The translations under genes were made by a program, and so were the position numbers. A stretch of 32,000 bases of DNA from Fibrobacteria bacterium (GTDB lineage: Bacteria > Fibrobacterota > Fibrobacteria > UBA11236 > JADFYW01): the NCBI GenBank assembly GCA_050294405.1, contig JBNKOC010000012.1, positions 103,031-135,030 on the forward strand. The letters are read 5' to 3'. Positions 627-20,024 of this stretch are shown piece after piece. Numbering within the stretch: position 1 is the stretch's first letter; each line of letters begins with the position of its first letter. The notes below the pieces were generated by a model that did not search any database, was not told the origin of the DNA, and saw only the letters and a program-made list of their open reading frames with translations.

Positions 627-974
627 TTATTCCTGCAGTCCGATATAAACAAAGCCTTTTTCAACTCGCACATTATAGATTTGAATTTTATAGTTTTCAC
701 CGCTTAAGCACTCCCCATTGGTTAGAGAAAATGTTTTTTTATGATGGGGACAGGCAACTTTTGGAATACCATCTTTTGTGCCGGTTAAGCCTCTAGCTAA
801 TACATTATCTCTTTTGTGAGGACATAAATTTTGACAAGCATACCAGTGCTTGTAATTAGAAAAATTAAATATGGCGATTTGTTTGCCCTTTAATTTTGCA
901 CAGGCTCCTCCATTCATTGGGAAATCTGATACGGCAGAAACCTTATGCCAAGTAGTGCTTTGCTGAGCAATCAT
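627..974 (-). CDS. nirD: Nitrite reductase (NADH) small subunit, Rieske [2Fe-2S] type
   Basis: 115 aa with Rieske-like CPHK...CPHH motifs. Overlaps the 3' end of nirB by 4 nt. Confidence 0.9.
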   Translation of the reverse strand: MIAQQSTTWHKVSAVSDFPMNGGACAKLKGKQIAIFNFSNYKHWYACQNLCPHKRDNVLARGLTGTKDGIPKVACPHHKKTFSLTNGECLSGENYKIQIYNVRVEKGFVYIGLQE

Positions 975-3493: not shown

Positions 3494-3605
3494 AACTTAC
3501 TAATCGGTTTTGTGAGATAACTAATAACGTGAAAGCAAAACCTATACCATCTCCAAACCTTGTTTTTTGTTAAAAAATAAGGAAAATGGAGCGTTGCTGG
3601 AATAA

Positions 3606-3629
3606 ATTGTCATACAATTTTCTGACAAT
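3606..3629. promoter_or_regulatory. Inverted repeat ATTGTCA-N10-TGACAAT in the nirB/kinase divergent region; candidate operator
   Basis: 7-bp perfect arms (3606-3612 and 3623-3629) placed immediately upstream of a TTGACA-like -35 element. Confidence 0.4.
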
Positions 3630-3631
3630 AC

Positions 3632-3660
3632 TTGACATTGTATATTAACCCCTAAATATA
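3632..3660 (+). promoter_or_regulatory. Candidate sigma70-type promoter for the phosphatase/kinase gene
   Basis: TTGACA (3632-3637), 17-nt spacer, AATATA (3655-3660). This placement would make ATG 3714 the natural start codon. Confidence 0.4.
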
Positions 3661-3713
3661 TGAGTTTCACAGAGTCTCTTTTTTGGTACAAGTGTTGCTC
3701 TTTCATAATAAAT

Positions 3714-5441
3714 ATGATAGCCATCCAAGAACGCAATAATCACAAGCTAGAAATAGTTTTGGGTCAATCCAGTTTGACTGGTCTTAGGGAGCGTAATGAA
3801 GATTTTTATGCATGTATTAAGCCGCAAAAGGTATCGACTTTAAATTACAAGGGTATTGCAGCAGTAATTGCGGATGGTGTTGGAGATACGGGTTATGGAC
3901 AAGAGGCTAGCCGTTATGCGGTGAGCACTTTTTTCTCAGAATATTTCAGTACTCCCGATTCTTGGAGCATAGAGCGATCCGGGGAAGAGGTGATAAAATC
4001 CATTAACAGTTGGTTGTACTCCCAGTCAGAACGCAACATTGGGGATAGTGGCCTTATGACGGCTTTCTCTGCAGCTATTTTATGTGGAAGCACTCTGCAT
4101 ATTTTCCATGTGGGAGACACAAGAATTTATTTAAAAGCAAAAAATAAATTAAAAAGGCTCACCAAGGATCATAGGGCTCATCACGGCCAAAATCAAATAA
4201 TTCGGGCATTGGGGTTAGATAGTAATGTTTACATCGATTATACACAGGAGATATTGGAACCAGATTCTTCTGTTATTATGATGACGGATGGCGTGCATAA
4301 TTATTTATCTGATGATAAAATCACAGGTTTTTTAAATAAGTTTGCAGCTCCTCAAGTGGCTTCAGAAGCATTAACAATGGCATCTCTTCGTGAGGGAAGT
4401 ACTGATAACATAAGCTGTCAAATAATTAACATAAAACACCTTCCTCCGTCGACAAAAAATGAAATTTATCAACGTTCCCGTGACTTGAAATTCCCCCCTC
4501 CCTTGAAAGTGGGTGCTTTTGTGGATTCTTATGAAATTCAGGAAGAACTAGGTTATGGAGCTATGGGGATAGTGTATTCCGCTTACGATTCTAAGAATGA
4601 TAAAGTGGTGGCTTTAAAGTGTCCCCGACAAGAATTTGAACAGGATATTATTTTCAGGGAAAGGCTCCTAAGGGAGGAATGGATTGGCCAGCGAGTTCAC
4701 AATCCAAATTTGATGAAAGTGCTGAATCCGAGTCATGTGCGCATGGAATACCATTATTTGGTAATGGAGTATTGTAAGGGATTTTCTCTTCGGGAACAAT
4801 TGGATAGTGGTAAGCATTTTAGTCATAATGATGTTGTTGAAATTGCTAAACAAATATGCAGAGGGTTGACAGAACTTCATCACATGGAAATTGTCCATAG
4901 GGATATTAAACCTGATAGTATTATTTGGAGTCAAGACGGTATGGTTAAGATAATCGACTATGGCATAGCCAAAGTTGGTAGTTTAAAATCTTTAACTTCA
5001 AATGCCAACGCTCCATGGATGGGAAGTCCCAATTACATGGCTCCTGAGATGTTCAAAAACAGTAGGGGGAATTCTGTCACGGATATATTCAGCCTTGGTG
5101 TCACCATGTATGAACTGTTAACAAGCTCCATGCCATATGGGGAGATAGACGCTGGAAAAGGTTATAAGAATACTGAGTTTGTTTCTTTACAAGAACTAAA
5201 CCCGGAAGTACCTAGCTGGCTTTCTACGGTGGTAGTTAAATGTTTGCACTTAGATCCTGACTCACGGTATCAAGCTGCTTCAGAAGTTCTATATGATTTG
5301 GAACATCCAGAAAAGGTTTTGCCTGATATGCGTTTTATTCCTTTATTGGAACGAAACCCTGTACTTGTTTGGAAAGTGATTTCGGCGACATTGCTTGGGA
5401 TTGTAGTTGTTTTGTCAGTGCTTTTGATTCGAGGGCGTTAA
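3714..5441 (+). CDS. Bifunctional PP2C-type phosphatase / Ser-Thr protein kinase with C-terminal TM helix, nitrite-assimilation associated
   Basis: PP2C motifs (RERNEDFY, IADGVGD, GDTRIYL, MMTDGVHN, GSTDNIS) are followed by a kinase domain (LGYGAMGIVYSA, VALKCP, VHRDIKPDS, IIDYGIAK, GSPNYMAPEM) and a C-terminal TM helix. The track starts at ATG 3660, but ATG 3714 fits better with the promoter and domain start. Confidence 0.88.
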   Translation: MIAIQERNNHKLEIVLGQSSLTGLRERNEDFYACIKPQKVSTLNYKGIAAVIADGVGDTGYGQEASRYAVSTFFSEYFSTPDSWSIERSGEEVIKSINSWLYSQSERNIGDSGLMTAFSAAILCGSTLHIFHVGDTRIYLKAKNKLKRLTKDHRAHHGQNQIIRALGLDSNVYIDYTQEILEPDSSVIMMTDGVHNYLSDDKITGFLNKFAAPQVASEALTMASLREGSTDNISCQIINIKHLPPSTKNEIYQRSRDLKFPPPLKVGAFVDSYEIQEELGYGAMGIVYSAYDSKNDKVVALKCPRQEFEQDIIFRERLLREEWIGQRVHNPNLMKVLNPSHVRMEYHYLVMEYCKGFSLREQLDSGKHFSHNDVVEIAKQICRGLTELHHMEIVHRDIKPDSIIWSQDGMVKIIDYGIAKVGSLKSLTSNANAPWMGSPNYMAPEMFKNSRGNSVTDIFSLGVTMYELLTSSMPYGEIDAGKGYKNTEFVSLQELNPEVPSWLSTVVVKCLHLDPDSRYQAASEVLYDLEHPEKVLPDMRFIPLLERNPVLVWKVISATLLGIVVVLSVLLIRGR

Positions 5442-5463
5442 CAGGTTAACATAAGCCCAAAAA

Positions 5464-5871
5464 TTATTCAGCGGGGAATAAATCGTAAATAAAAACCGGA
5501 GGTTTTATGGGATGCCCTTTTGGATGTATAAAGGCATGCAGCGTTTGCCCTGTGGCAATCGTATTGCCATTTTTTTGAACCTCATAACAAAATTTAATTT
5601 TTGCTTTACCAACAAGATATCGGGTAGATTTTATTGTGATGGTATCGCCAAAAAAAGCAGGTTTTTTGTAGGTAGCTTGGGAAGCTATCACAGGAATGAG
5701 AATGTTATTTTTTTCCATCTCCTGATAGGGGTACCCTAAATCTTCAAAAATTTCGATTCGAGCCGCTTCAAAATAGGTATAGTAATTTCCATGGTGGACA
5801 AAGCCCATGGCATCCGTTTCTGCATATCTGATTTTTATATTAAAGAAATGTGGGTTATGGGGGTGTTCCAT
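5464..5871 (-). CDS. Acyl-CoA thioesterase, 4HBT/YbgC-like hot-dog fold
   Basis: Starts IRYAETDAMGFVHHGNYYTYFEAARIE, the canonical 4HBT signature. 135 aa. Confidence 0.9.
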   Translation of the reverse strand: MEHPHNPHFFNIKIRYAETDAMGFVHHGNYYTYFEAARIEIFEDLGYPYQEMEKNNILIPVIASQATYKKPAFFGDTITIKSTRYLVGKAKIKFCYEVQKNGNTIATGQTLHAFIHPKGHPIKPPVFIYDLFPAE

Positions 5872-7250
5872 TATGCGGCATTTGGAACGCTTTTTTTAGA
5901 AGCGGTTAATATCCAGATAGTGGCTATACTACCCATTAACATGTTAGTTAGCATAGGGGCGTAGTGAAGGCCGTATTCGCCAAGCGTGGTATGCTTGGAT
6001 AAAATATAACTCAGAGCAAAATTAACGACTGCAATCCTTAATATAGTTATATACATGCTGGGAGTTCCCCTTCCCAGGCCTTGAAAGGCGCCGCCGGCAA
6101 CCATGGCCATTCCTATAAAGCCGTAGCTTAAGCTAACGCAGGATAAATAATGGATAGCAGAAACAAGGGTCTGTTTTTCCGGGTTAAATAACCCCAGTAA
6201 AGGACCTTTTAACAAAAATAAGATGACTCCAACCAATGAAGCGCAGATAAAAACGGATAATAGGCCTTTTACAATGGATTCCCGAACTCTCTCAATATTT
6301 TGCGCACCATAGTTTTGGCCCACCAAAGAAACAATGGCCGACATGATGGATAAGGAGGTAAAAACTCCAATGGTGTCTATTCTCATTCCAATTCCCAATG
6401 CGGCAATTGCAGAAGAGCCAAATGGAGTAGCCAGGGCGGTTAACAGTGTTACCCCTACACCGAACATGGATTGGCTAACGGATGCTGGCAGGGAAACTCT
6501 GATAATGCTTTTTAAATGTTGGGTGTCCGACCAGCTTGGGAGGATGGGCCATTTTAAAGCGCTTTTTCCTTTAAGGAAATACATTACGATAACTAAAGAC
6601 ATGGTGAAGTTTGCCACTACTGTTGCAATAGCTGCTCCAGGTACTCCCCAACCAAGGCCCTGTATATTCATTCCCAAAAATTTAAAACTGTCAAAAATAA
6701 AAAGTGGGTCCAGAATCAAATTTAAAATGGTTCCATAGAACATAGCCATGGATAGGGTTCGCATGTTTCCTTCGGCCCTCAATGCGCCTCCCAAAACAAG
6801 AGCTGAGGAGGTAAACATAAACCCAATCATTACAATTAGCACATAGGATTGGGTCAGGCCGGAAGTTATGGGGTCTACTTTTAATCCGGCCAAATAAAAT
6901 TTTAAAATAAATGGAATGAGTATAATTAAAACTACAAATACTCCCAAAGCAGTGAGAACGGTTTGCGCTAATGTTTGTTCCGCCTCTTTAACTTTTTTTG
7001 CCCCTAAAAGTTGGGCGAGTATGGCAGAACTTCCAGAGTTAAGTCCGTTAAAAAGGGCGAAAGGCACATAGAACATGGGAAAGCCGTAATTGAGAACGGC
7101 CATAGATGCCTGTGTACCCAATCTGGAAACGTACATGGCGTCGGCGATATTGAGCACCATATGAGCTACTAGCCCCAGAAACATGGGCAGTGCCATGCGG
7201 ACTATATGGGGGATTATATTGCCCTGGGTTAAATCTTTTTTGCTTTGCAT
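5871..7250 (-). CDS. MATE family (multidrug/sodium) efflux transporter
   Basis: 459 aa, roughly 12 TM segments, MATE-like motifs (FNPEKQ loop, GLGWGVPGAAIATVVA, QNYGAQN). Overlaps the thioesterase start by 1 nt. Confidence 0.93.
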   Translation of the reverse strand: MQSKKDLTQGNIIPHIVRMALPMFLGLVAHMVLNIADAMYVSRLGTQASMAVLNYGFPMFYVPFALFNGLNSGSSAILAQLLGAKKVKEAEQTLAQTVLTALGVFVVLIILIPFILKFYLAGLKVDPITSGLTQSYVLIVMIGFMFTSSALVLGGALRAEGNMRTLSMAMFYGTILNLILDPLFIFDSFKFLGMNIQGLGWGVPGAAIATVVANFTMSLVIVMYFLKGKSALKWPILPSWSDTQHLKSIIRVSLPASVSQSMFGVGVTLLTALATPFGSSAIAALGIGMRIDTIGVFTSLSIMSAIVSLVGQNYGAQNIERVRESIVKGLLSVFICASLVGVILFLLKGPLLGLFNPEKQTLVSAIHYLSCVSLSYGFIGMAMVAGGAFQGLGRGTPSMYITILRIAVVNFALSYILSKHTTLGEYGLHYAPMLTNMLMGSIATIWILTASKKSVPNAA

Positions 7251-7269
7251 TTGTCCGGCATTTTTTGGC

Positions 7270-7773
7270 CTAGGTGGGCCTTGACCCCCTGGTCATTATG
7301 ATTTTACCGGATCGAACATACTCAATAATGCCAAACTTGTCTAGCATAAGGTGAAGGGCGTCTAGCTTGTCAGAATTGCCGGTAGCTTGCAAAATCAGAT
7401 TTTCTTCTGTTAAATCCACAGTTTGACATTTAAAATGTTTTGAAATTTGCAGAATTTCCGATCTTTGATCCGCATTGCAATTGACTTTGATAAGCAACAG
7501 CTCCTTTTCAATATTTCCTTCGGAAGAATGGTGTTGGGCGTGAATAACGTCCACCAATTTGTTGAGTTGTTTGATGATTTGATCGAATGTTAAGGGATCG
7601 CCACTGGCAACCAGACTCATTCTGGAAAAATTAGGATCGTGAGCCGGAGAAACTACAGCGCTTTCAATATTAAAACCCCTGCGGGCAAAAACCAGGGCGA
7701 TGCGAATAAGAACACCTGGTCGGTTATTTACCAAAAGACTAATTGGATATTGTTCCATTTTTTGACTGTTCAT
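7270..7773 (-). CDS. ilvN: Acetolactate synthase small (regulatory) subunit
   Basis: ACT domain starting ISLLVNNRPGVLIRIALVFARRGFNIESAVVSP; adjacent to ilvB. Confidence 0.92.
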   Translation of the reverse strand: MNSQKMEQYPISLLVNNRPGVLIRIALVFARRGFNIESAVVSPAHDPNFSRMSLVASGDPLTFDQIIKQLNKLVDVIHAQHHSSEGNIEKELLLIKVNCNADQRSEILQISKHFKCQTVDLTEENLILQATGNSDKLDALHLMLDKFGIIEYVRSGKIIMTRGSRPT

Positions 7774-7774
7774 A

Positions 7775-9490
7775 TTAAGTACTCCCTTTTGGTTTTTCCA
7801 CAGCTTCTTTGGGACGTTCCAGCATCATTTTTGAATAGGGAGCTCCCGCGGGAACCATTGGGAAAACATTATCTTCCTTCTCTACTTCTGCGTGAATCAC
7901 ACAAGGACCTTCGTTATACTCCATAGCCGCTTGCAGCACTTTTCTTACTTCAGCATTTCTTTTAATGCGAAAGCCTTTGCAGCCATAGGCTTCAGCCAGT
8001 TTTACAAAGTTGGGGTTTCCAACCATATCTACACCGGAATATCTGTTATCAAAAAAGATATCTTGCCATTGGCGAACCATGCCTAAATACCGATTGTCTA
8101 TTACCAGTATTTTAATGGGAAGTTTATGAATAACAGCCGTAGAAATTTCGCACAAAGTCATTTGAAAACCGCCGTCACCAACAATAGCTACTACCTGTTC
8201 TTCTGGCATAGCCAATTGAGCGCCGATTGCGGCAGGGAATCCAAATCCCATCGTGCCGGCACCACCGGAAGATATCCAGAAGTTTCTTTTATTTACTTTG
8301 TAAAATTGGGCCGCCCACATTTGATGCTGCCCTACATCGGTAGTCACTATGGCTCCGCCCTGGGTTACATGGTAGAGTTCATCAATTACATATTCGGATT
8401 TTAAGCCCCCCTGTTTTTTGTACTTGAGAGGGTATTGCTTTTTCCATTTTTGAACTTGCTTAACCCAGTTTTCTGTATCTCCAGGTCTTACCATGGTGTT
8501 GAGTTCTTCAACCACCAATCTGGCGTCTCCTAAAACAAAGATATCGGGTTGAATCATCTTTCCATTTTCGGATAGGTCTATGTCAACATGTATCTTTACA
8601 GCGTCTTTACAAAATTCATCCAGTTTGCCAACAATACGGTCATCCCATCTGGAACCAATGGACATTATTAAATCGCAATCCATTACAGCGTAATTGGCGT
8701 ATGCCGTTCCGTGCATACCTAACATCCCTAAGTTTAAAGGATGGGTTTCCGGAAAAGCCCCTTTTCCCAAAAGAGTATTTACCACGGGAATCTTCATTTT
8801 TTCCACTAAATTGGAAATAGCCTTGGAAGCGTTGCTGATAACAGCGCCATGCCCTAATAGCAAAATCGGTTTTTTGGCGTTGTTCAATGCTGTGGCCACA
8901 GCCTGGATGTCCTCAAACTCTCCTCTGCCAGGAATAGTGTAACCAGGAAGATTTTTTTCCACGGAAAAATCGGGTTCGAATGGAGTAGAGGAAACATCCT
9001 TGGGCAAGTCTATGAGAACGGGTCCTGGACGTCCTGTTTCGGCAAGGTAAAAAGATTCTTTAACTATTTTTGGGATTTCCGTAACATCTTTAACCAGGTA
9101 GCTGTGTTTTACAACCGGGTAAGAGATTCCGGATACATCGGCTTCCTGGAAGGCGTCCAAACCTAAATTAGCTGTTATTGTTTGCCCGCAAATGATAATC
9201 ATAGGAATTGAATCCATGTGAGCTGTCATAATTCCTGTTATGGTATTAGTGGCCCCGGGACCGGAAGTGACCAGAACAACACCTGCCTTGCCTGTGGCTC
9301 TGGCATATCCATCTGCCATATGAGTGGCTCCCTGCTCGTGGCGGGAAAGAATTAATTTGATTGGAGAATCAATTATGGCGTCAAAAATAGGAATGCTTGC
9401 GCCACCCGGGTAGCCGAAAATATATTCAACCCCATGCTGTTCTAGCCCATCTATTAGTGCTTGAGCTCCAGTTCTTGTAAGTTTACTCAT
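7775..9490 (-). CDS. ilvB: Acetolactate synthase large (catalytic) subunit, ThDP-dependent
   Basis: 571 aa. Motifs [49 protein letters not shown]...N (ThDP binding). Confidence 0.96.
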
Positions 9491-9712: not shown

Positions 9713-10384
9713 ATGGACAAAATAAGTTCTGGTATGCTGCCCAGAGAAAAAATAATGCGTTTTGGGGTGGAAAAGTTAGAGGTATGGGAGTTGTTTGCTG
9801 TAGTTTTAGGGGTTGGTTACCCAGGAAAAGGTATTCTGGAACTTTCCAAAGATATCATTGAGGGTATTTCTGCCAACTCTAGTTATCCTAATCTTGAAGA
9901 ATTGGTTCAAATAAAGGGAATTGGTGAGGCTAAGGCTTGCAAAATATTAGCTGTTTTGGAGCTTTCCAAAAGGTTTATACCATTTGCAGAAAGAGCTAGT
10001 CTTAATTGCCCAGAGGATTTTATTCCGCTACTAGCACCCTTAAAATTTGCCAACCAGGAAGAGTTTTGGGTTTTTACGCTGGATTCAACAAATAAGCTTA
10101 TACAATCCCATGCAGTTACAAAAGGTTTGGTGAACCAAAGCCCCATTCATCCCCGAGAGGTTTTTGCTCCTGCTATAGTAGATAGAGCTGTAAACCTAGT
10201 TTTATGCCATAACCATCCTTCTGGAAGCCTCAAACCCTCCAGGGCAGATTTGGATGTGACTCGGGAATTGGTGAGTTTGGGTTCTCAATTAAAAATACCC
10301 ATCCTAGATCATATTATCGTATCCAGCAAAGGTATATGTTCTTTATCCAGGGAAATGCCGGATTTATTTTTGTATGGCCCTTAG
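9713..10384 (+). CDS. radC: RadC family protein (MPN+/JAB domain)
   Basis: HhH region (VQIKGIGEAKACKILA) and metal-binding CHNHPSGSLKPSRADLDVT. Confidence 0.92.
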   Translation: MDKISSGMLPREKIMRFGVEKLEVWELFAVVLGVGYPGKGILELSKDIIEGISANSSYPNLEELVQIKGIGEAKACKILAVLELSKRFIPFAERASLNCPEDFIPLLAPLKFANQEEFWVFTLDSTNKLIQSHAVTKGLVNQSPIHPREVFAPAIVDRAVNLVLCHNHPSGSLKPSRADLDVTRELVSLGSQLKIPILDHIIVSSKGICSLSREMPDLFLYGP

Positions 10385-10410
10385 GGGAAAAGAAGACCAT
10401 AATTAGGTAC

Positions 10411-11919
10411 ATGCGGGTAATCCATAAATTTTGGAAAAGAATAGGGCTGCTTTTGTGCTCAGCCTATTTGGTTTCAAGTTGCGTAAAGATTGAAACAAAA
10501 GAAATAAAATACCCTGATGGAGCGATAAAAGAAAAATATAGCTATTACCTGGCTGAAGGCGGTTTGGAAATCTGGGATGGAAAATACAGCCGTTGGTATC
10601 CATCGGGAAAACTCGCCGAAGAATCAAATTGGAATGAAGGTATTCTCCACGGGGTTCAAACTCAGTGGTATGAAAATGGCAATAAAAAAATGGAAGGAAA
10701 CTGGATTTTTGGAGAGGAAGAAGGTGTTTTTAAGAAATGGTATGTAAATGGTCAGTTGGCTGAAGAAATGGCTTTTGAAACCGGCCGCCCCAAAGGACAA
10801 AAAACAGTGTGGCATCCTAATGGAAAGAAAAAATCAGAATTGATGATTGTTAACGGATTAGAAGATGGGATAGAAAATATATGGGATGATAATGGAGATG
10901 TTTATTCCCAAAGGTTTTGGATAAGTGGAAAGCTTGATAGCGTTAAAACATACATTCCCGAGTCAGAGTTGAAACAAATGTCAATCGAGTTTGAGCCTGG
11001 AAAAAAGGCGGAGGAATTTAGCTATTTTTTAGATCCTGATGGAAACCAAATTCGACATGGAGATTTAAAGCAATGGTATGACAACGGGCAGTTGGAACGA
11101 AATATTTCTTTTGATTTCGGAAAAAAAAATGGAATGGAAATTTGGTATTTCGAAAATGGTTTAAAAAAATCAGAAATTCCCTGGAAGGTTGGGAAAAAAG
11201 ATGGCGTGGAAAAACATTGGTATCCAAATGGTGAATTTCAAAAAAGTGAAGAAAACTATGATACAGGGATATTAAATGGAGTTGTAAAAAACTGGTACCC
11301 AAATGGTAAATTAAAAAGTGAATTTTATTACGTTGATGGCAAACTCAGCGATACAGCAATGCTGTGGTTTGAATCGGGTACATTAAAGTCCAAAGCAGTT
11401 TACAGTGAAGGTAAGCTCAATGGCCAGGTGATCAGTTGCTACCCTATAGGACAAAAGAAATCTGTAGCTAGTTTTCAGGAAGGTGTAAAACATGGGAAAT
11501 ACCAGGAGTTTTATACTCATGGTCAGATAAAGTTGGAAGTGGAATACAATCGGGGTATAAAAATTGCGGAAAGTGTTAAGAAGTGGACTAAAGGTGGAGA
11601 TAGGGTGGATTTGAGCAAAATGTATACAGCTGTTGAAAAAGCCCAGTTGGAGCAAAAAATCAAACAATCCCATTCTAATTGTCAAAAAGAAATTGAGAAC
11701 GTTGCTGAACTTAAGGCAAAGTTAAATAGCGGTAGCCTGTATAAAGAACTGCAAAAACTTGAAATCAGCTACAACAGATCAGAACAAAAAAAAGAGGAAG
11801 AGTGCGAGTCCTACGGGGACAAAGTTGAAGAATACTTAAATTATTTTTCAAAAGAAGAATTGGATGAATTTTTACGTCTACAAAACTTAAGCCCTCTTAA
11901 TAGCCCCGGTTTCAACTGA
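10411..11919 (+). CDS. Putative lipoprotein with many MORN/YwqK-antitoxin-like repeats and a C-terminal coiled-coil region
   Basis: ATG 10411 gives MRVIHKFWKRIGLLLCSAYLVSSC (lipobox). About 12 repeats of the W-Y-x-N-G-K/Q-L type follow, then a charged helical tail. The track start at 10336 overlaps radC and is probably too long. Confidence 0.85.
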   Translation: MRVIHKFWKRIGLLLCSAYLVSSCVKIETKEIKYPDGAIKEKYSYYLAEGGLEIWDGKYSRWYPSGKLAEESNWNEGILHGVQTQWYENGNKKMEGNWIFGEEEGVFKKWYVNGQLAEEMAFETGRPKGQKTVWHPNGKKKSELMIVNGLEDGIENIWDDNGDVYSQRFWISGKLDSVKTYIPESELKQMSIEFEPGKKAEEFSYFLDPDGNQIRHGDLKQWYDNGQLERNISFDFGKKNGMEIWYFENGLKKSEIPWKVGKKDGVEKHWYPNGEFQKSEENYDTGILNGVVKNWYPNGKLKSEFYYVDGKLSDTAMLWFESGTLKSKAVYSEGKLNGQVISCYPIGQKKSVASFQEGVKHGKYQEFYTHGQIKLEVEYNRGIKIAESVKKWTKGGDRVDLSKMYTAVEKAQLEQKIKQSHSNCQKEIENVAELKAKLNSGSLYKELQKLEISYNRSEQKKEEECESYGDKVEEYLNYFSKEELDEFLRLQNLSPLNSPGFN

Positions 11920-11979: not shown

Positions 11980-14157
11980 ATGGAAATTCCAGTAGCTGTA
12001 AAAGCAGCAAAATATTTAATGCTGCTGTCTGCTTTATCTCTGCAATTTTCCTGTAAGCAAAATGGAAGTGTAAAAATGGAAAATAAATTACGAAATGAAA
12101 AAAGCCCCTATCTCCTGCAGCATGCTAAAAATCCGGTCCATTGGTATCCTTGGGGTGAGGAAGCGTTTAACAGAGCTAAAAAAGAAAATAAACTAATACT
12201 ATTGTCCATTGGTTATTCTACTTGCCACTGGTGCCATGTCATGGAAAAAGAATCTTTTGAAAAAGAGGATGTGGCAGCTATCCTTAACAAATATTATGTA
12301 AGTATTAAGGTAGATAGAGAGGAACGCCCGGATGTAGATAATTTGTATATGGGATTAGCACAAGCTTTAGGGGTTGGGGGAGGCTGGCCCCTTAATTTGT
12401 TCTTAACTCCCGACCAGGTTCCTTTTACCGGGGGCACCTATTTTCCTCCGGAAGATGCTTATGGTAAGCGAAGTTTTAAATATGTGCTTCAAACTGTGGC
12501 AAAAATGTGGGAAAGCGAACCTCAGAAAATTTTAGATACAGAAAAAGGGGTGCTAAAATATATCAATCAAAAAAATGAAGTAACCCCCACAGCTGTAAAT
12601 ATTGAAGCGTTGCATCAAAAGGCGATTTTAGAAAAAGCTTCTATGTATGAGCCGGCGTATGGGGGCTTTTCTTCAGCTCCAAAGTTCCCTATGGGTCACG
12701 CACTTTCCTATTTGATATTGCTCGAAAAAAGAAATCCAGACAAAGTGCTTCTCAATAGAATAACCCACACTTTGGATAACATGGCTTCGGCCGGGCTTTA
12801 CGATCAAATTGGAGGGGGGTTTCATCGTTATTCCACAGACAGGGAATGGCTGGTGCCCCATTTTGAAAAAATGTTATACGACCAGGCGCTTTTGATTACT
12901 GCATATGCCAATGCCTACAGCAATACCTTAAATAGCCGCTATGCAGAAATTGTAGCGGAAACAATTGAGTATCTGCGTAGAGATATGTTGGATGAAAAGG
13001 GAGGTTTTTATTCGGCTGAAGATGCCGATAGCGAGGGAGAAGAAGGGACTTTTTATTTATGGGAAATATCGGAACTCAAGGAATTAGTTCCAGAGAATAT
13101 TGGAATGTTAATGGATTGGTTTGATATAAAAGAGCATGGGAATTTCGAGGGAAAAAATATTTTAACCCGTAAACATACTATTAGATGGTTGGCGGAAAAG
13201 TATGGAAAAGATGAAGACGGGTTGAAAGCTAAAATAAAGGAAATGAATTCCAGGCTTTTGGCCGCAAGAAGCCAAAGAATCCGGCCTCATTTGGACGATA
13301 AAATTTTAACAGACTGGAACGGTTTAGTTATATCGGCGTTAAGCAAGGCAGCCCAGGCTTTGCCCGATTCGCTGGGCGATATATATAAAAAAGAAAATAG
13401 CCTTAATATGGCAAAAAATGCGGCCGAATTTGTTTTAAAAGAATTAAGAGATAAGGATAACCGGCTTTTAAAAAGTTACAGGCAAGGGCCTTCTAACATC
13501 GCAGGGTTTATTGAGGATTACGCCTTTTTTGCCAATGGACTATTGGACTTGTATGAAAGCAGTTTCGAAGTAAAATACCTTGAGGAGGCTGTGGCTACAG
13601 CCCGCCAGATGATTGAAAATTTTTGGGACTCCAAGGACGGTGGCTTTTATTTTATTCCTAAAGATGGAAGCATGCTCTTAAAAAATGCCAAGGAACTCAA
13701 TGACGGAGCTATTCCCAGCGGAAATAGTGTGGCGGCGCAGGTATGTGCTCGTCTATATCGCATTACCGCAAATGAGGAATACAAAAACATATTGGAAAAA
13801 ATGATTTCCTTTTTTGGCCCTCAAATTAATACCTATCCTTCCAGCTATCCTGTTTTTTTATCCGCATTGGATATGTATTATAATCCCGGTCCTGAAATTA
13901 TTTTATCCGGAAATAAAGAAAACGAATCCTTTAAAAAAATTTGGAGCCTGGTAAAAAAATACCCATCCATAAACCAAATATTAATTCATGTTCCTGAACA
14001 CAGTGAATCAGCCATATTTGAAATAGCTCCTTTTACCAAACAACAACGAGTCGTTGAAGGAGATGTAACCTTTTATTATTGCCAAAATAGAACATGCCAA
14101 AGACCTTTGAATTCTCCCGTAGATGTGGAAGAATTTTTAAAATCAGTTGCCGGATAA
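11980..14157 (+). CDS. DUF255 / thioredoxin-domain protein, YyaL (SSP411)-like
   Basis: Motifs [24 protein letters not shown] and [17 protein letters not shown], and an (a/a)6-like C-terminal region. The track start is TTG 11962; ATG 11980 gives a signal/lipobox-like N-terminus. Confidence 0.93.
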
Positions 14158-14850
14158 TATTTGCAATATTGTGCTTTTGTGATTATCGAGATAATAAGAA
14201 AAATCGTGAAGGCCATCAGGGAAAATATACAGGCTGGTGTTTGGATTTTGTTTTTTCCATTCTTTAAAAACAGGTTCAATTTTTTCAATTGGAAAGAGTC
14301 TGTCGTTTCCTCCCTGAAAAAAGTGCCAATGCCCTTTTTGAAACCCATCTTGACTGTAATTTTTTTGATTTAAAATAATTTGAGGGGCGCTGGAAAATAA
14401 AAGCCTCTTGGTTATATTAAAGGGGCTGTTAATACTAAAGTGAATCACGGCTAAAGAGCCATCCGAAACACCAAATAAAATAATCGGCAATTTTTCCAAT
14501 TGCTGTTTGGCGATAAATTCCCTTAAAAAACTATTTATGTTTGTCATTAGTTGCGGGTGAAGCCAATGTAAGTTTCTATTGGCTGAGGGGCTGAATACTA
14601 TATAATCATTTCTGTTTATAAGAGGGTATATGCCTGTTAAGGCTTGTTTCCCTTTGTCTGATATGGGACTATTCATGCCGCCATGAAACCAGATGATAAT
14701 ACCTTTGGCCGAGGTCATGTTTGAAGGAAAGCTGGCGCCGTAGAAAACATTTTCAGAGCCGAATTGAAAAATGGAGTCCCGGAAGGAAAAAGAATTCTCC
14801 AGAAAGAAAAACAAATGGCAAAATAATAAAAGATGAATCTTTGTATTCAT
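14143..14850 (-). CDS. Exported alpha/beta hydrolase (serine esterase-like)
   Basis: [22 protein letters not shown] signal peptide, IIWFHGG, nucleophile elbow FGVSDGS, later GGNDRLFP and DGLHDF (Asp/His). The track starts at TTG 14865; ATG 14850 is more likely. Confidence 0.75.
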
Positions 14851-14886
14851 ACTCATTAATTGCAATATAGCACAATGAATAGTTGC

Positions 14887-15561
14887 TTAGTGGATTCGAA
14901 TTACAATTCTTCTGTTGGCGGCTTGGTTTTCTGGAATGGGCTTGCCGTTGGAGTCCCTGTTGGGAGCAACAGGCTTGGTATCTGCATATCCTGCAGCCTT
15001 AAGCCTGTCCCCATTCACGCCAGTTTCTATCATATACTTAACAATGTTTGTTGCCCTGGAAACGCTAAGCTCCCAGTTTGAGGGAAAACGAATGGTGTTA
15101 ATGGGAACATCATCTGTATGTCCTTCCACATCCACTACAAAGGGGTAATAATCAACCTGCTTAATGGCTTGTGAAACCTTATCAATCAGGTTTTGTGCTG
15201 TTGGGCTTATGTCGGCACTCCCGCCAGCGTAAAAAGCCGAACTTGCAAATTTTAACATTATGTTTTTTTGGTCCTGCTTTATATTAACCTGCTGGGCTGC
15301 TTTCTCATCAGCCAATAACGAGTCCAGAGCCCGCTTAATATCAGCCAAGGGAGTTTTTATCTTCTCGTCTTTGATTTCCGAAATGATTCCAGATTTCATT
15401 TGTTCCCATAAGCTCATATCCACTTTTGAAATGGATATTAACATTAAAAAAAACGCCATAAGAAGGGTTATCATATCCCCGTAGGTATTCATCCAGTCAT
15501 CTAAATTCACCTCTTCAGGTTCGTTTAGTCTGTATTTGTTTTTATGGGATTTTAAAGCCAT
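14887..15561 (-). CDS. motB: MotB-family stator protein with OmpA-like peptidoglycan-binding domain
   Basis: DDWMNTYGDMITLLMAFFLMLISIS TM helix with the proton-channel Asp (D29). OmpA domain EGHTDDVPI...NWELSVSRATNIVKYM...RLKAAGYADTKPV...NRRIVIRI. Confidence 0.92.
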   Translation of the reverse strand: MALKSHKNKYRLNEPEEVNLDDWMNTYGDMITLLMAFFLMLISISKVDMSLWEQMKSGIISEIKDEKIKTPLADIKRALDSLLADEKAAQQVNIKQDQKNIMLKFASSAFYAGGSADISPTAQNLIDKVSQAIKQVDYYPFVVDVEGHTDDVPINTIRFPSNWELSVSRATNIVKYMIETGVNGDRLKAAGYADTKPVAPNRDSNGKPIPENQAANRRIVIRIH

Positions 15562-15572
15562 GAATCGCTGCC

Positions 15573-16367
15573 TTATTTTTTGGGCTCAGCATCCATTTGA
15601 AATTTATTTTTTCTGTCCAAATAGGCGTTTAATTTATCCTGAATATAAAATGGACTTTTCTTTTCCAGTATTAACATAAACCCTTCAAGGATTAGATATT
15701 CCCGGAACCTTTGGATTCCTAAAATTTGCTTTACTTTGGTGGAGCATGGTTGGAATATAAATCTGGCGAATAAAACCCCATATAATGTGGTCATGAGGGC
15801 AATAGACAAACCAGGTCCCATTTGAGAGGGGTCATCCATTTTGCTTAACATTACAATTAATCCAATTAAGGTGCCTACCATGCCAAAAGCCGGAGCGGCA
15901 GAGGCCATTGTGTTTAATATGTTGGATTCGGATAGATGTCTGAAGTAGTGCTCTTCAATGGCGGTTTCGGTAAACTCAGCCACCTCATCTTTGGAATAGC
16001 CGGTACTGATTAAGGAACTAACATACTTCACGAAATCATCTTTTGTCTCATTTCCGATGTTTTCAAAAGCGTTGATTCCGTCTTGGGATACACGCCTGGA
16101 CCAGCTGATAACCATTCCCACATCCTGCATAAGAGATTTTGGAGTTATTTTCTGGCGTACGAAAACTTTAAATATAGATAAAAGAGCTACAAAAATATAG
16201 CGCCAGCGATACCCGATAAAAGCAGATGTTACGGTACCTCCAACAACAATGGAAGCGCTGGGACCGCTGATAAATATGCTCCAGTCATTAGTTGCGCTTA
16301 AAACACCCCAGGAAACAATTCCCACACCAAAAATAACACCGAATACGGTGGAAAGGGAAAGAAACAT
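15573..16367 (-). CDS. motA: MotA/PomA-family flagellar-type stator protein
   Basis: IVVGGTVTSAFIGYRW, SWSRRVSQDGINAFE cytoplasmic loop, MASAAPAFGMVGTLIGLIVMLSKMDDPSQMGPGLSIALMTTLYGVLFA, FQPCSTKVK. Confidence 0.95.
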   Translation of the reverse strand: MFLSLSTVFGVIFGVGIVSWGVLSATNDWSIFISGPSASIVVGGTVTSAFIGYRWRYIFVALLSIFKVFVRQKITPKSLMQDVGMVISWSRRVSQDGINAFENIGNETKDDFVKYVSSLISTGYSKDEVAEFTETAIEEHYFRHLSESNILNTMASAAPAFGMVGTLIGLIVMLSKMDDPSQMGPGLSIALMTTLYGVLFARFIFQPCSTKVKQILGIQRFREYLILEGFMLILEKKSPFYIQDKLNAYLDRKNKFQMDAEPKK

Positions 16368-17044
16368 TAATTTTGCTCCAAACTTTTGTTGGCTTTTTTA
16401 AGCTTATTCAACATTTGAATAACAGCTGGCATATCAGGGTTTAATCTAAGAGATTGCAACCAGGCTTCTTTGGCGGCGGGCATATCGTCCATCATGTATA
16501 ATATGCTTCCCATAAGGGCGTATCCATCTGACGTTTCTTGTTTTTGTAAACTGAATTTCACCATGTCCAAAGCTTCCGGAAATCTTTTCTGATAGAAAAA
16601 CTCCTGCGCCTTTCTAATTTCCGCCAAGACCTGCTGCATATCGCCTTTTGTAAGGTCATTGCCTTTGGCTATATCCATAACATCATCCCAATTTTCTTTT
16701 TTGTCTTTTTCTTCTTCCTCTTTAGCGGCAGAGTCTACGGAGGTTTTTTTGCTGGATTGCTGGACTTGAGGGGCGACAGGAGAAGGCGGGGGAACCGGGC
16801 TGCCTGACATTACCAAATTTACATCCTGGCTGTTTATGTCCACAACCATAGTTACATTTGAAGACTTGTTAGTGTATGAAATTTTCATTTCATTGCTATT
16901 TTTTGGCGCTGGAGAAGAAACCTGGTTATTCTCTGCACGGGTATCCGCGCTTTTTTTATCTGCCTTTGAGGAGGCGCAGCCCATAGCTCCCAATAGGGCT
17001 ATGTAAATCAGGCTAGAAGGTATAATTAAGGATGTCCACTTCAT
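16367..17044 (-). CDS. TPR-repeat lipoprotein of the rotor-stator cluster
   Basis: Signal/lipobox LLGAMGC, a Pro-rich linker, then TPR-like helices (EFFYQKRFPEALDMVKFSLQKQETSDGYALMGSILYMMDDMPAAKEAWLQSLRLNPDMP). Its TAA and the motA ATG overlap by 1 nt. Confidence 0.8.
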   Translation of the reverse strand: MKWTSLIIPSSLIYIALLGAMGCASSKADKKSADTRAENNQVSSPAPKNSNEMKISYTNKSSNVTMVVDINSQDVNLVMSGSPVPPPSPVAPQVQQSSKKTSVDSAAKEEEEKDKKENWDDVMDIAKGNDLTKGDMQQVLAEIRKAQEFFYQKRFPEALDMVKFSLQKQETSDGYALMGSILYMMDDMPAAKEAWLQSLRLNPDMPAVIQMLNKLKKANKSLEQN

Positions 17045-18092
17045 AAGCTAGTTTCTCAAAGGTGATTTTGTGCCCCACTGCATCTCCCAAAGAACCGGTG
17101 ATAAACCGATCTCCAGCTATGTAACTTACCCCAATGGATACTCCAAAATGTTTGGAGAGTTGAGCGTTATATCCATAGGTAAAAACCGGAATGCTGCCTG
17201 TAAATAAAAAAGGAACATAATAGTAGGCGCTAAAATAGGTCCCCAACCAATGGCCCCTGTCCCGGTTTCCTTTGGGAACTAACACGGCCCAAACTCCAAC
17301 TCCAATTTGCATGGTGTATATGCCGCTGTAGCCCAATTCAATACTGTCTTTTTTGGAGATTGCCATGCGGGATACACCTGCGTTGATGTTAAACCACAAC
17401 CTTCGGTTTTTGGTCAAGGCTTCAGTGACACTCCCTTCAATGGCGACTTGGTTAAACCCGGTTTCCTTGTCTATGCCGCTTTGTCCCTCAAACTTTTCCA
17501 TGGAAAAAATTCGAATAGGTACATGAGCGGACCATTTTAAGTCGAATATGCTAGGCTCCACCTTGTTGGGTCCTGCGATAAAATCTCCAGACCACAATAT
17601 TTCAGCAGTTCGGTGCTTCACTAATTTTAGATTTAACATTACATCGCCATCCTTGGACTTGCTGCAAGAACCTTCAATAAAAGCGTCAATTCTTAATTTA
17701 TCGCCAAGCTTCCAAAGCTCTTCGATAGTAGGAATGGTGTTAGACATGCTAAAGGAGGTATCGGTGCTGATAATATTCAGGGTTTTTAGTTCGGGGGGAG
17801 ATACTAGCGTACGGCGGCCTTCATCCCGCAATGTAGTTTCAATTCGGCCTTGAATGTATCTGGACTCCCCTTTTGTGAAACCTTTGGAATCCGTTCTGAT
17901 TTGGTAAATGGCGATTTTTTCCACCGAGGGAGGTATATCCCCTAATGTTTCCTTTAGCTCAGCAATAATTTTTTCAATTTGCTTGATTCCGGAGGATGTT
18001 TCATAAAAGGGATGGTTCTCCGGTAGGTTTTCCGTTACATTGTCCCCGAAAGAAAAGGCGAATAGAAACCCCAATAATGTTAGTATTCTCAT
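17013..18092 (-). CDS. Exported protein: FlgO/CsgG-like N-terminal domain plus possible outer-membrane beta-barrel C-terminal region
   Basis: MRILTLLGFLFAFSFG signal. IAIYQIRTDSKGFTKGESRYIQGRIETTLRD...LVSPPEL...LGDKLRIDAFIEGS...LKLVKHRTAEILWSGDF resembles FlgO/CsgG-type folds. The C-terminus has alternating aromatic/Gly strands and ends in Phe (NYTF). Confidence 0.55.
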   Translation of the reverse strand: MRILTLLGFLFAFSFGDNVTENLPENHPFYETSSGIKQIEKIIAELKETLGDIPPSVEKIAIYQIRTDSKGFTKGESRYIQGRIETTLRDEGRRTLVSPPELKTLNIISTDTSFSMSNTIPTIEELWKLGDKLRIDAFIEGSCSKSKDGDVMLNLKLVKHRTAEILWSGDFIAGPNKVEPSIFDLKWSAHVPIRIFSMEKFEGQSGIDKETGFNQVAIEGSVTEALTKNRRLWFNINAGVSRMAISKKDSIELGYSGIYTMQIGVGVWAVLVPKGNRDRGHWLGTYFSAYYYVPFLFTGSIPVFTYGYNAQLSKHFGVSIGVSYIAGDRFITGSLGDAVGHKITFEKLAYEVDILNYTF

Positions 18093-19909
18093 GCCTCCGG
18101 CCTCCCGCCATAGGCTTTGATATCCTGCCTGATTTTTTGCAAAAGGGTTTTTTGCGCGCTTTCAATTTCTTCAGCTTTTAAATCGGTTTTGGTTTCCAAA
18201 CCCGATTTTATCATAAGCTGCATCCGCTCAGGTAGTAAGGAAATTACTTTTAATTTTATGTCTTCTTCTACTCCGGCAAGGGCATTGGTAAGTACATCCT
18301 GGTTTACATTTCTAACAGAATTAGTGAGAAACTTGTCGGGAAGGCTGGTGATTTCAGGTAGGGTGATAAAATTGTTTTTGATTTTTTCCGCCAGGTTTAA
18401 ATCCACTTCTGCAATGGAATTCAGATATTCTCCCTGGACAGAAATGGGAAGGCTGTCTAAAACATCCAGTACGCTTTCAATGCCATCAGAAGCTACATAG
18501 CGCATGTTTATAACTTCAAGCGCGTTGGCAGACAATCTATCCGCTAGTTCCTTGTATACTTTAAGGGGGATGTTTTGAATTTTTCCCATTCCCGCAAGAA
18601 TTTTTGTGCGCTTGGATTTATCCAATTTTTGAAGTATGGAGCTTGCTTTGGACGGTTCCACCTGGGCTAAAGCCATGCCAATGATTCCTTCAGATTCCTC
18701 CTTTAACAGGTGGAGGATTTGTTGTTCGTTCATCTGGCGCAAAAACCCAAAGAGATCTGCATATTCGCTTTCGTTTATTATGGAGCTGGTTTGGTTTTGG
18801 TAATCTTCTTTGAATTGCTTATACACAGCTAAAACTTCTTCCCCCGCCAAGGGTTCCAATTGTTTTAACCTATTTTCGATATTTTTAGTTTCTTCTTTTC
18901 CCAGTTCTGTGGAAACAACTTTTAATATTCTTTCATCAACTGCCTTAATTAATTTTGTTGTTTCCTGATGTCCTTCTTCACCTTTTTGCTGAATCCATTT
19001 CTTTAATACCTGAGAGCTGGAGGCTGTGTCCCCAATAAAGGCGCTTAACACATAAGAACGCATTTCCCGGAGTTCGTTATTCCCACTGTCCTCTTCTTTA
19101 TTAGCCTCTGTAGATTTTTCTTTTTCGGGAGCTGTTTTAATTTCCTGGAGTTCGTTGATGATGTTAGTATAGGAATCCTGGACCTTGCTTCGCTGCCGGT
19201 TTTTAGAAAACGCTCGGGAAACAATAACGGCAATTAACAAAACAAAAATGCAAATGATGAGTAGGGGTATTAAAGAAGCCAGGTTGTCCACCAAAGGTTT
19301 GAAGGGGTTTAATTTTTCCTCTTTTTCCAACAGCTCGGAATCCGCCTTACTGCTGGGTAAGGCTTTTGGGTCCATGTTTTCAGCCAATTGATATCCCGAA
19401 TTAGGCTTTTTCTGGACTGGGAAAATTCCGGAGCGAATATCCAGCCTGTCTCCCCGATATTCATTTAAATTTGCCGACATGCTAATAAGCTTTTTAATAA
19501 AGGAGTAGTCTTTATCTTCATAGCTTGTATCCACCATGATTTCCACTTCCACATGGTTAATGGAAAAGTCACTTTGTTTTTTCCCAGCCCTGGCTTTTGC
19601 CGCCCCTTCCTTCATGTCATTGGGCAACACAGGCAGCCCCGGCAGGGTGTATATATCATCCAAATCCCCTTCCAGATCAATTTCTTCAGACTCGTTCAGA
19701 AACACATTGGCATCTACTAAAAAAGTCCGTTCATCATAATATTTGCTGAGAACATCTTTTATTAGAACTTCGTAGTAGTGGGAGGCTTTGCGAGATTGGG
19801 CTTCGTATTTGCTTCTATCCTCATTTTTAACTTTAAATTCCTGGCCATTAGCCGGGGCAAAAAGGATTATTGCAAAAAAGGCCCACTGGATGATGCCTGC
19901 AAATTTCAT
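18089..19909 (-). CDS. Natural fusion: signal peptide, FliF C-terminal (RBM3-like) periplasmic domain, TM, cytoplasmic FliG (middle and C-terminal domains)
   Basis: FliF-like NHVEVEIMVDTSYEDKDYSFIKKLISMSANLNEYRGDRLDIRSGIFP. TM helix LASLIPLLIICIFVLLIAVIVSRAF. FliG-like IGMALAQVEPSKASSILQKLDKSKRTKILAGMGKIQNIPLKVYKELADRL...GIESVLDVLDSL...DLNLAEKIKNNFITLPEI...ALAGVEEDIKLKVISLLPERMQLMIKSGLE...EEIESAQKTLLQKIR. The track start is TTG 19933; ATG 19909 gives a clean signal peptide. Confidence 0.85.
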   Translation of the reverse strand: MKFAGIIQWAFFAIILFAPANGQEFKVKNEDRSKYEAQSRKASHYYEVLIKDVLSKYYDERTFLVDANVFLNESEEIDLEGDLDDIYTLPGLPVLPNDMKEGAAKARAGKKQSDFSINHVEVEIMVDTSYEDKDYSFIKKLISMSANLNEYRGDRLDIRSGIFPVQKKPNSGYQLAENMDPKALPSSKADSELLEKEEKLNPFKPLVDNLASLIPLLIICIFVLLIAVIVSRAFSKNRQRSKVQDSYTNIINELQEIKTAPEKEKSTEANKEEDSGNNELREMRSYVLSAFIGDTASSSQVLKKWIQQKGEEGHQETTKLIKAVDERILKVVSTELGKEETKNIENRLKQLEPLAGEEVLAVYKQFKEDYQNQTSSIINESEYADLFGFLRQMNEQQILHLLKEESEGIIGMALAQVEPSKASSILQKLDKSKRTKILAGMGKIQNIPLKVYKELADRLSANALEVINMRYVASDGIESVLDVLDSLPISVQGEYLNSIAEVDLNLAEKIKNNFITLPEITSLPDKFLTNSVRNVNQDVLTNALAGVEEDIKLKVISLLPERMQLMIKSGLETKTDLKAEEIESAQKTLLQKIRQDIKAYGGRPEA

Positions 19910-20024
19910 TGATACACTCAATTTTTGAAGCAAAATATTCTCTAACGATTTTTTTCATGGTATTACAATCCCGGTTGGGTTTGCAAAGGTTTTTTAGGAA
20001 GGGCCTTTAAAAATTCAAAAAAAA

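Follow-up and report, generated by a model that had tools for sequence, protein, structure and literature searches.

A five-gene cluster of Fibrobacterota and Balneolaceae encodes a FliF(RBM3)-FliG fusion with MotAB-type stators and may form a non-flagellar rotor-stator machine of the cell envelope

Stator scaffolds are found in several high-torque flagellar motors: the FlgP disk together with the tetratricopeptide repeat (TPR) proteins PflA/PflB in Campylobacter, FlgO/FlgP/FlgT together with MotX/MotY in Vibrio, and the collar of the TPR protein FlcA in spirochaetes. On the rotor side, the Chlamydiaceae possess a natural FliF-FliG fusion of about 330 amino acids (aa), which contains an RBM2-like domain, a second ring-building motif (RBM) and a FliG-M-like region only, and which was linked with the injectisome (PMC4768692). 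This protein is the closest precedent for the fusion described below. Engineered FliF-FliG fusions of Salmonella and Vibrio form S-rings, so a single FliF-FliG chain is able to build rings (PMC11481574). Plug-bearing PomA-like stators (the 'FIT' class) were classified as flagella-specialised in a recent survey (PMC12505986). Here we describe a cluster of five genes that encodes a FliF- and FliG-related fusion protein together with MotAB-type stators of its own. It is located on the minus strand at positions 14887-19909 of a stretch of 32,000 nucleotides (nt) from a Fibrobacteria bacterium (assembly GCA_050294405.1, contig JBNKOC010000012.1, positions 103,031 to 135,030), which is called the window in the following. 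No description of such a system was found in the full-text literature and no name in databases, in agreement with an earlier note on this DNA, which knew of no named system with this gene set.

The five open reading frames (ORFs), designated A to E in the direction of transcription, are co-directional and abut or overlap, and they span exactly the interval that the earlier note had given for five packed genes. Genes A and B overlap by 4 nt, B and C by 32 nt and C and D by 1 nt, and a gap of 11 nt lies between D and E. We consider it somewhat more probable than the opposite that this cluster specifies an autonomous, non-flagellar rotor-stator machine of the envelope, whose parts would be those of the flagellum's torque-generating core.

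The assignment of the rotor is based on gene A (19909-18089, minus strand, 606 aa). Its start was taken as the ATG at 19909, as in the public gene call; in the ORF list the frame reaches a TTG at 19933 (614 aa). The protein consists of an N-terminal signal or anchor sequence, a periplasmic domain, a linker, one transmembrane (TM) helix, a disordered linker and, in the cytoplasm, FliG N, M and C domains (aa ~314-595, 18125..18970, from Pfam, NCBIfam and profile matches). Pfam FliG_N, FliG_M and FliG_C match significantly at aa 322-603 of the 614-aa ORF, with E-values of 7.6e-18 for FliG_C and 2e-9 for FliG_M, both above the cut-off. A profile of 15 members of the A family retrieved FliG crystal structures from the PDB (FliG of T. 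maritima, E 7.8e-20). The FliG homology assumed in the earlier note is thus confirmed by these searches, and the NCBIfam equivalog model for FliG (TIGR00207) gave 82.7 bits, below its cut-off of 226.7 bits. In public databases the protein goes only by the names 'hypothetical protein', 'FliG' or 'FliG C-terminal domain-containing protein'.

The N-terminal half of gene A starts with a hydrophobic signal peptide or signal anchor read from the sequence (MKFAGIIQWAFFAIILFAPANG, aa 1-22, 19844..19909). The periplasmic domain that follows comprises about 125 aa (aa ~42-164, 19418..19786) and, according to the alignment and to profile searches, is a split ring-building motif homologous to RBM3 of FliF: an alpha-beta unit, an insert with an invariant LPGLPxLP, and a beta-alpha-beta unit with RGD reproduce the split layout of RBM3, the S-ring domain, with the insert at the corresponding position. 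The strength of this match depended on the breadth of the profile. For the window protein alone, the Pfam YscJ_FliF_C match was weak and sub-threshold (E 0.005), and a narrow profile of the N-terminal domain (A3) found no match in the PDB and only a weak one by hhalign. A broad profile (A5) was built from 42 sequences including distant members, obtained from a search of 1.84 billion representatives. With this profile only six entries of the PDB matched, all of them FliF, and the best one (9yh6_Oj, E 4.6e-5) was aligned over the whole domain. By hhalign, the beta2-alpha2-beta3 part of the domain was placed on residues 372-433 of E. coli FliF (E 9.5e-4). Distant members of the A family themselves come close to the Pfam YscJ_FliF_C cut-off or pass it, as P0145 does (33 bits versus 23.8).

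RBM1 and RBM2 are absent from gene A, the periplasmic part of which has about 185 aa and a single RBM, and no N-terminal Pfam YscJ_FliF match was found in the protein. Gene A is therefore unable to accommodate an export gate and cannot serve as the sole FliF/FliG of a flagellum. The FliF/FliG fusion proposed in the earlier note stands as regards FliG and an RBM3-like domain with a TM helix, but it does not extend to RBM1 and RBM2. The FliF homology of gene A is thus real but partial, and the protein is best described, as judged from profiles and alignments, as a FliF-RBM3-plus-TM module fused to FliG. The linker preceding the TM helix is rich in proline and charged residues and ends in a conserved NPF motif. 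The TM helix itself (aa ~208-232, 19214..19288, delimited by invariant alignment columns) is nearly invariant within Fibrobacterota (SLIPLLxxC). Since such conservation is unusual in a plain membrane anchor, the helix may contact the stator or adjacent subunits within the membrane.

In the FliG part, the FliM-binding EHPQR motif is lost: only the glutamate (E125) is kept, and at H126, P127, Q128 and R160 all aligned members have other residues. The arginine of the torque helix (R281 in E. coli FliG) is invariant in 57 of 57 aligned family members; the equivalents of D288, K264 and R297 of E. coli FliG are not kept in the family. In E. coli, rotor and stator interact through the charge pairs R90-D289 and E98-R281 (PMC12505986). 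The charges found here at MotA-90, MotA-98 and FliG-289 map to these two pairs, are clade-specific and change in a matched way. All 41 Balneolaceae sequences have K or R at MotA-90 and E (in one case D) at FliG-289. Fibrobacterota have G at FliG-289 and mostly Q at MotA-90, and MotA-98 is E or D in 14 of 16. This pattern fits a conserved electrostatic interface.

Genes D (16367-15573, minus strand, 264 aa) and E (15561-14887, minus strand, 224 aa) encode the predicted stator. Gene D has a MotA_ExbB domain, and its best NCBIfam models are PomA (5.5e-42), MotP and MotA. Gene E combines a MotB_plug domain (3.6e-15) with an OmpA domain (4e-17) and is matched best by MotD, MotB and MotS; plug and OmpA-like peptidoglycan-binding domain are present in every aligned member. 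The equivalents of the MotB channel aspartate (D32 in E. coli) and of the MotA prolines P173 and P222 are found in all aligned members of both clades (10-11 sequences), as the earlier note had stated for the window; the ion path and the peptidoglycan anchor of the stator are intact. The earlier note had also assigned the stators to the true PomA/MotA-MotB type and not to ExbB/TolQ, which is borne out by the E-value for PomA compared to those for TolQ (5.1e-4) and ExbB (5.4e-4) in NCBIfam. Membership in the ExbBD/TolQR families was rejected, as the best match is PomA and the operon holds no TonB- or TolA-like gene. A relation to the Zorya system (ZorAB) was likewise considered and rejected: PADLOC models for ZorA gave E-values of 0.004-0.045 (0.0037 at best), ZorC, ZorD and ZorE are missing, and the ZorB hits reflect the shared MotB fold. 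Gene D has threonines at the positions of PomA T158 and T185/T186, residues without which Na+ is not bound in Vibrio (PMC6677748). These PomA-type residues are a hint that the coupling ion may be Na+.

The two remaining genes encode putative envelope partners. Gene B (18092-17013, minus strand, 359 aa) begins with a signal peptide that lacks a lipobox, followed by a conserved periplasmic domain of about 150 aa in the N-terminal part; the C-terminal half closes with a strand of alternating hydrophobic residues of the outer-membrane protein type (...Y-x-F), the last residue being phenylalanine. An OMP_b-brl match was obtained for 4 of 23 members of the B family and was weak, and a scan for period-2 hydrophobicity was uninformative on barrel strands. 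Gene B encodes an exported protein, with a small beta-barrel as its probable anchor in the outer membrane. The label 'FlgO/CsgG-like' of the earlier note could not be established. No relative of gene B was found in Pfam, NCBIfam or among PDB sequences, in which matches stayed at chance level. The resemblance is confined to one hairpin motif of 21-22 residues (L.l.l..v.TgEIvWS), and hhalign, aligning the terminal hairpin alone, placed it on CsgG 169-190 with 1.7% probability and on LpoB 187-207 with 23%. CsgG and LpoB are lipoproteins, from which gene B differs by its missing lipobox. We regard the likeness to CsgG, LpoB and FlgO as a lead and not as a result. Gene C (17044-16367, minus strand, 225 aa) encodes a lipoprotein: in the window protein (lipobox AMGC), and likewise in the family N-termini that were examined, the hydrophobic stretch at the N-terminus is followed by a cysteine. 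A low-complexity linker leads to a C-terminal TPR domain with one Pfam TPR match, which agrees with its earlier description as a TPR lipoprotein. In nearly all loci, of both phyla (see below), gene C starts about 30 nt within the end of gene B, and this suggests translational coupling of the two genes.

To which extent the cluster is conserved was assessed by an alignment-based, pattern-type scan that covered 185,579 species with one genome each and was not exhaustive; an earlier scan with a single query protein had found no loci. The scan yielded 65 loci, about 20 in Fibrobacterota (32-53% identity for A) and about 45 in Balneolaceae/Rhodothermia (28-31%). The closest relatives are found in metagenome-assembled genomes (MAGs) of Fibrobacterota and in one single-cell genome; cultured carriers are Gracilimonas tropica DSM 19535 (L036) and Balneola sp. 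EhC07 (L051). At every locus with enough flanking sequence the order A-B-C-D-E and the overlaps are identical, that is in about 60 genomes of two phyla. The conservation of gene order that the earlier note had proposed to look for in relatives is therefore evident. Families of flanking genes are common within sub-clades only and are not shared between Fibrobacterota and Balneolaceae. For eight moderately diverged pairs, the ratio of nonsynonymous to synonymous substitutions (dN/dS, Nei-Gojobori) was between 0.00 and 0.26 in all five genes. The conserved order, the unrelated flanks and the low dN/dS lead us to conclude that the five genes form a unit that is self-contained and functional, rather than a remnant in decay. 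These data also bear on the view that the cluster is a relic of a lost flagellum that has no present function. Loss of flagellar genes was indeed proposed in both lineages (PMC4704652, PMC9909488), but a relic is hardly compatible with the purifying selection seen in all five genes, with a gene order and overlaps kept over two phyla, with invariant functional and interface residues, and with B and C as system-specific partners in a family of 174 diverged representatives. We consider this explanation very improbable.

The relation of the cluster to flagella deserves separate consideration. No other flagellar genes (export gate or ATPase, rod, hook, filament, switch) were found in the window or in its public gene calls, and neither FliM nor FliN is encoded near the cluster. 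When 22 flagellar proteins of E. coli were compared by tblastn to the window and 70 related loci (1.25 Mb in total), FliG matching gene A was the only hit apart from one marginal flgD match (48 residues, E 8e-4). The absence of export, rod, hook and filament genes from the locus, on which the earlier note had based its proposal, is confirmed by these searches. G. tropica is non-motile (PMC5167729). In a KEGG-based comparison, G. tropica DSM 19535, the genera Balneola and Fodinibius and others were reported without flagellar assembly genes, and Aliifodinibius differs in this respect (PMC9909488); for the cultured carriers the statement is taken from the KEGG analysis of this one paper. Autonomy from flagella is thus supported for some carriers. 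Balneola vulgaris has been cited as motile with flagella, although the KEGG comparison lists Balneola genomes as lacking flagellar assembly genes (PMC5167729, PMC9909488).

Alternatively, the five proteins could be accessories of a canonical flagellum that is encoded elsewhere, as an additional paralogous set of rotor and stator or as a periplasmic scaffold. In Fibrobacterota, flagella were inferred to be common and to be an ancestral trait that only Fibrobacteraceae have lost (PMC4704652). At one locus from a Fibrobacteres MAG (L021), a complete chemosensory operon encoding a methyl-accepting chemotaxis protein, a CheA-CheW-REC hybrid, CheW, CheB and CheR (1101-8533 of that locus, minus strand) lies on the opposite strand 1.4 kb upstream of gene A; the other loci have no such operon. 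TPR proteins and disk proteins associated with the outer membrane are, moreover, known as stator scaffolds of flagella (PflA/PflB, FlgP, FlgO/FlgT). An accessory role is nevertheless difficult to reconcile with the architecture of gene A, which brings a ring-building domain and a TM helix of its own and which, lacking RBM1, RBM2 and the FliM-binding motif, can neither hold an export gate nor become part of a switch complex. The cluster was unlinked to flagellar genes throughout the 1.25 Mb and is present in G. tropica, for which flagellar assembly genes were reported missing. Aliifodinibius, the genus of Balneolaceae reported to have such genes, was not among the 65 loci of the non-exhaustive, pattern-based scan. 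Taken together, we judge a role as flagellar accessory to be quite improbable. A 'CheA' cluster that seemed to lie near the Balneolaceae loci was rejected: it consists of ordinary hybrid histidine kinases that had been joined by single linkage.

The profile of the N-terminal domain of gene A retrieved 174 representatives (50% identity clusters, E ≤ 0.001); of the full-length ones, most have about 570-750 aa with the domain in N-terminal position. Four distant clusters from this wider family were compared to the window type. One of them (L073) has the same architecture as the window. In L072 and L075, a large upstream protein ending in a C-type TPR domain is followed by an A-like protein, a small lipoprotein and MotA; in L072, MotB follows MotA, and L075 ends in a truncated ORF past MotA. 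In L074 (8001-14137), a soluble periplasmic protein joins three RBM3-like domains in tandem to a C-type TPR domain; after it come a further TPR protein, an RBM3-TM-FliG protein, MotA and MotB. This arrangement can be read as a variant of the system with stacked rings, and the fusion of RBM and TPR domains suggests that the C-type TPR domain may bind the periplasmic ring. A C-type TPR domain, an RBM3-TM-FliG protein and MotA are encoded in all four variant clusters; MotB is found in two, and the contig end cuts off the other two. Judged by these shared parts, the invariant core of the system consists of the RBM3-TM-FliG protein, the C-type TPR domain and a MotA-type stator, and the B-type protein is specific to the window type.

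On the basis of these similarities we propose the following mechanism. Gene A would polymerise via its RBM3 and FliG domains to a ring in the inner membrane, in which one polypeptide takes the part of MS-ring and FliG-ring. D and E would form units of the 5:2 type (D5E2), fixed to peptidoglycan, which open on docking and conduct Na+ or H+. These units would push the C-terminal torque helix of FliG, so that the ring turns. Rotation would occur without CheY-FliM switching of the flagellar kind, since FliM and FliN are missing and the EHPQR motif is lost. C would dock with its C-type TPR domain on the periplasmic ring, on MotB or on both, and B would link the assembly to the outer membrane. Together, B and C could act as a stator scaffold, comparable to the TPR proteins and outer membrane-associated disks of the Campylobacter and Vibrio motors, or as receiver of the torque. 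Candidate outputs, each of them much less probable than the machine as such, are the movement or remodelling of a component of the outer membrane or surface, or motility that does not depend on flagella.

Several observations speak against such a rotary machine. Formation and rotation of the ring are inferred from homology only, and none of the genes encodes an obvious load or a component for the output. The NCBIfam equivalog cut-offs are not reached by the stator proteins (143.8 versus 341 bits for PomA, 158.1 versus 283 bits for MotD); with scores so far below these values, D and E are best regarded as a divergent subfamily of flagellar-type stators. The covariation of the interface charges separates two clades only and hence counts as a single evolutionary event. 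Some of the carriers may be flagellated, considering that an ancestral flagellum was inferred for Fibrobacterota (PMC4704652). Finally, an N-terminal, peptidoglycan-binding LysM domain precedes the RBM3-like domain in several distant A-like proteins (L072 6666-8891, P0159, P0191, P0212, P0122), and LysM on a supposed rotor fits a freely turning ring poorly.

The LysM domains can be better understood if the ring is static. In that case, gene A would be a fixed, envelope-anchored platform that does not turn continuously, and ion flow would drive conformational work or signalling in a Ton/Tol-like manner through FliG and the periplasmic partners. LysM domains occur on distant A-like proteins in clusters that also encode an OmpA-anchored MotB. 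Neither a rod nor a bushing nor an obvious load is encoded, and the periplasmic partners seem to be anchored as well, B looking outer membrane-embedded and C being a lipoprotein. The parts are, however, of the torque type and not of the Exb/Tol type, namely the plug, the PomA-type cytoplasmic domain and the FliG torque helix with its invariant arginine (PMC12505986), and the window-type A protein has no LysM. We therefore regard an energy transducer with a static ring as unlikely, and favour the rotor-stator machine.

The surroundings of the cluster add little to its interpretation. The region 5' of gene A (19910..20024, minus strand, 115 bp) is, as read from the sequence, the likely promoter region of the operon; consensus-based scans for promoters and terminators gave no more sites in the window than in shuffled controls. 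The G+C content is uniform over the window, and neither Rfam families nor tRNAs were found in it. The earlier note had described the neighbours as unrelated metabolic genes, an esterase and a DASS transporter. The transporter was confirmed (Pfam match with E 2.9e-81), but the 'esterase' (14143-14865, minus strand) has just a weak Hydrolase_4 match (E 6.5e-4). It begins about 21 nt past gene E, and at other loci it is not kept beside the cluster. Being co-directional and so close to gene E, it may be co-transcribed with the cluster in the window. About 3 kb beyond gene E, a lipoprotein with MORN_2 repeats is encoded (10336..11919, plus strand, lipobox LVSSC). Homologs of this protein are divergently encoded directly upstream of gene A in 12 loci of Fibrobacteria (L005-L014, L022, L067). 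The MORN_2 lipoprotein is a possible clade-specific accessory component, and its distance of 3 kb makes this a weak link in the window. Further away, one protein of 593 aa (3660-5441, plus strand) carries a PP2C phosphatase domain at its N-terminus and a Ser/Thr protein kinase domain at its C-terminus. At 627-3493 (minus strand) lie the genes for the two subunits of an assimilatory nitrite reductase: the large subunit is NirB-like, with FAD/NAD oxidoreductase, BFD-like 2Fe-2S and nitrite/sulfite reductase domains, and the gene that follows encodes a Rieske subunit similar to NirD.

We put slightly below even the probability that the cluster encodes an autonomous rotary machine made from the torque core of the flagellum, with outer-membrane and TPR partners of its own, which would be the third flagellum-related machine beside the injectisome and would imply that a rotor-stator works without type III export. 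Models of flagellar origin debate whether a rotor-stator module and a secretion apparatus ever existed separately, and such an operon would bear directly on this question. If the proposal is right, it provides a living example of the motor core alone, ancestral or derived, in bacteria reported to be non-flagellated. It may then power a function of the envelope or in motility that has not been recognised, for example the motility reported for Balneola, the genomes of which were reported to lack flagellar assembly genes. The cluster would also be an exception to the classification of plug-bearing PomA-like stators as flagella-specialised (PMC12505986). Two cultured carriers, G. tropica DSM 19535 and Balneola sp. 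EhC07, open the system to experiment.

Compared to the flagellar motor core (FliF, FliG, PomAB/MotAB), the cluster has a split domain of the RBM3 type, the M and C domains of FliG including the arginine of the torque helix, and a stator of the 5:2 type with channel aspartate, prolines in TM3 and TM4, plug and OmpA-like anchor, and the electrostatic residues are partly kept. It differs from this core in that FliF and FliG are one polypeptide, RBM1, RBM2, FliM and FliN are absent and the EHPQR motif is lost; moreover, the locus lacks the type III export gate, rod, hook, filament and L/P rings, the partners are an outer-membrane-protein-like protein and a TPR lipoprotein, and the stators score far below the equivalog cut-offs. 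The Chlamydiaceae fusion likewise joins a periplasmic RBM of the MS-ring type, a TM helix and a FliG part in a single polypeptide, and its host has no flagellum (PMC4768692). In contrast to it, the protein described here has retained RBM3 and the full FliG M and C domains and is accompanied by dedicated stators; adjacent stator genes are not mentioned for the Chlamydiaceae (PMC4768692).

With the stator scaffolds of Campylobacter, Vibrio and spirochaetes the cluster shares an outer membrane-associated periplasmic protein and a TPR protein that are encoded together with MotAB-type stators, and the gene for the TPR protein lies next to motA. Searches of Pfam, NCBIfam and the PDB, however, detected no homology to these scaffolds at the sequence level, the likeness of B to CsgG, LpoB and FlgO does not go beyond one hairpin, and a flagellum that these partners could decorate is missing. 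In function, the nearest analogies are the non-flagellar 5:2 motors, since GldLM (type 9 secretion and gliding), AglRQS (gliding of Myxococcus), ExbBD-TonB, TolQR-TolA and ZorAB are all inner-membrane ion motors that power processes in the periplasm or at the outer membrane with no flagellum involved, a task of the sort proposed for the present cluster. These motors act via an extended B subunit or a TonB/TolA-like arm and have no FliG-type rotor, whereas the stator of the present cluster is of flagellar lineage and its proposed partner is a FliG ring. If this holds true, a new ion-driven envelope machine would join Ton, Tol, Gld, Agl and Zor, and it would be the sole one among them with a FliG rotor.

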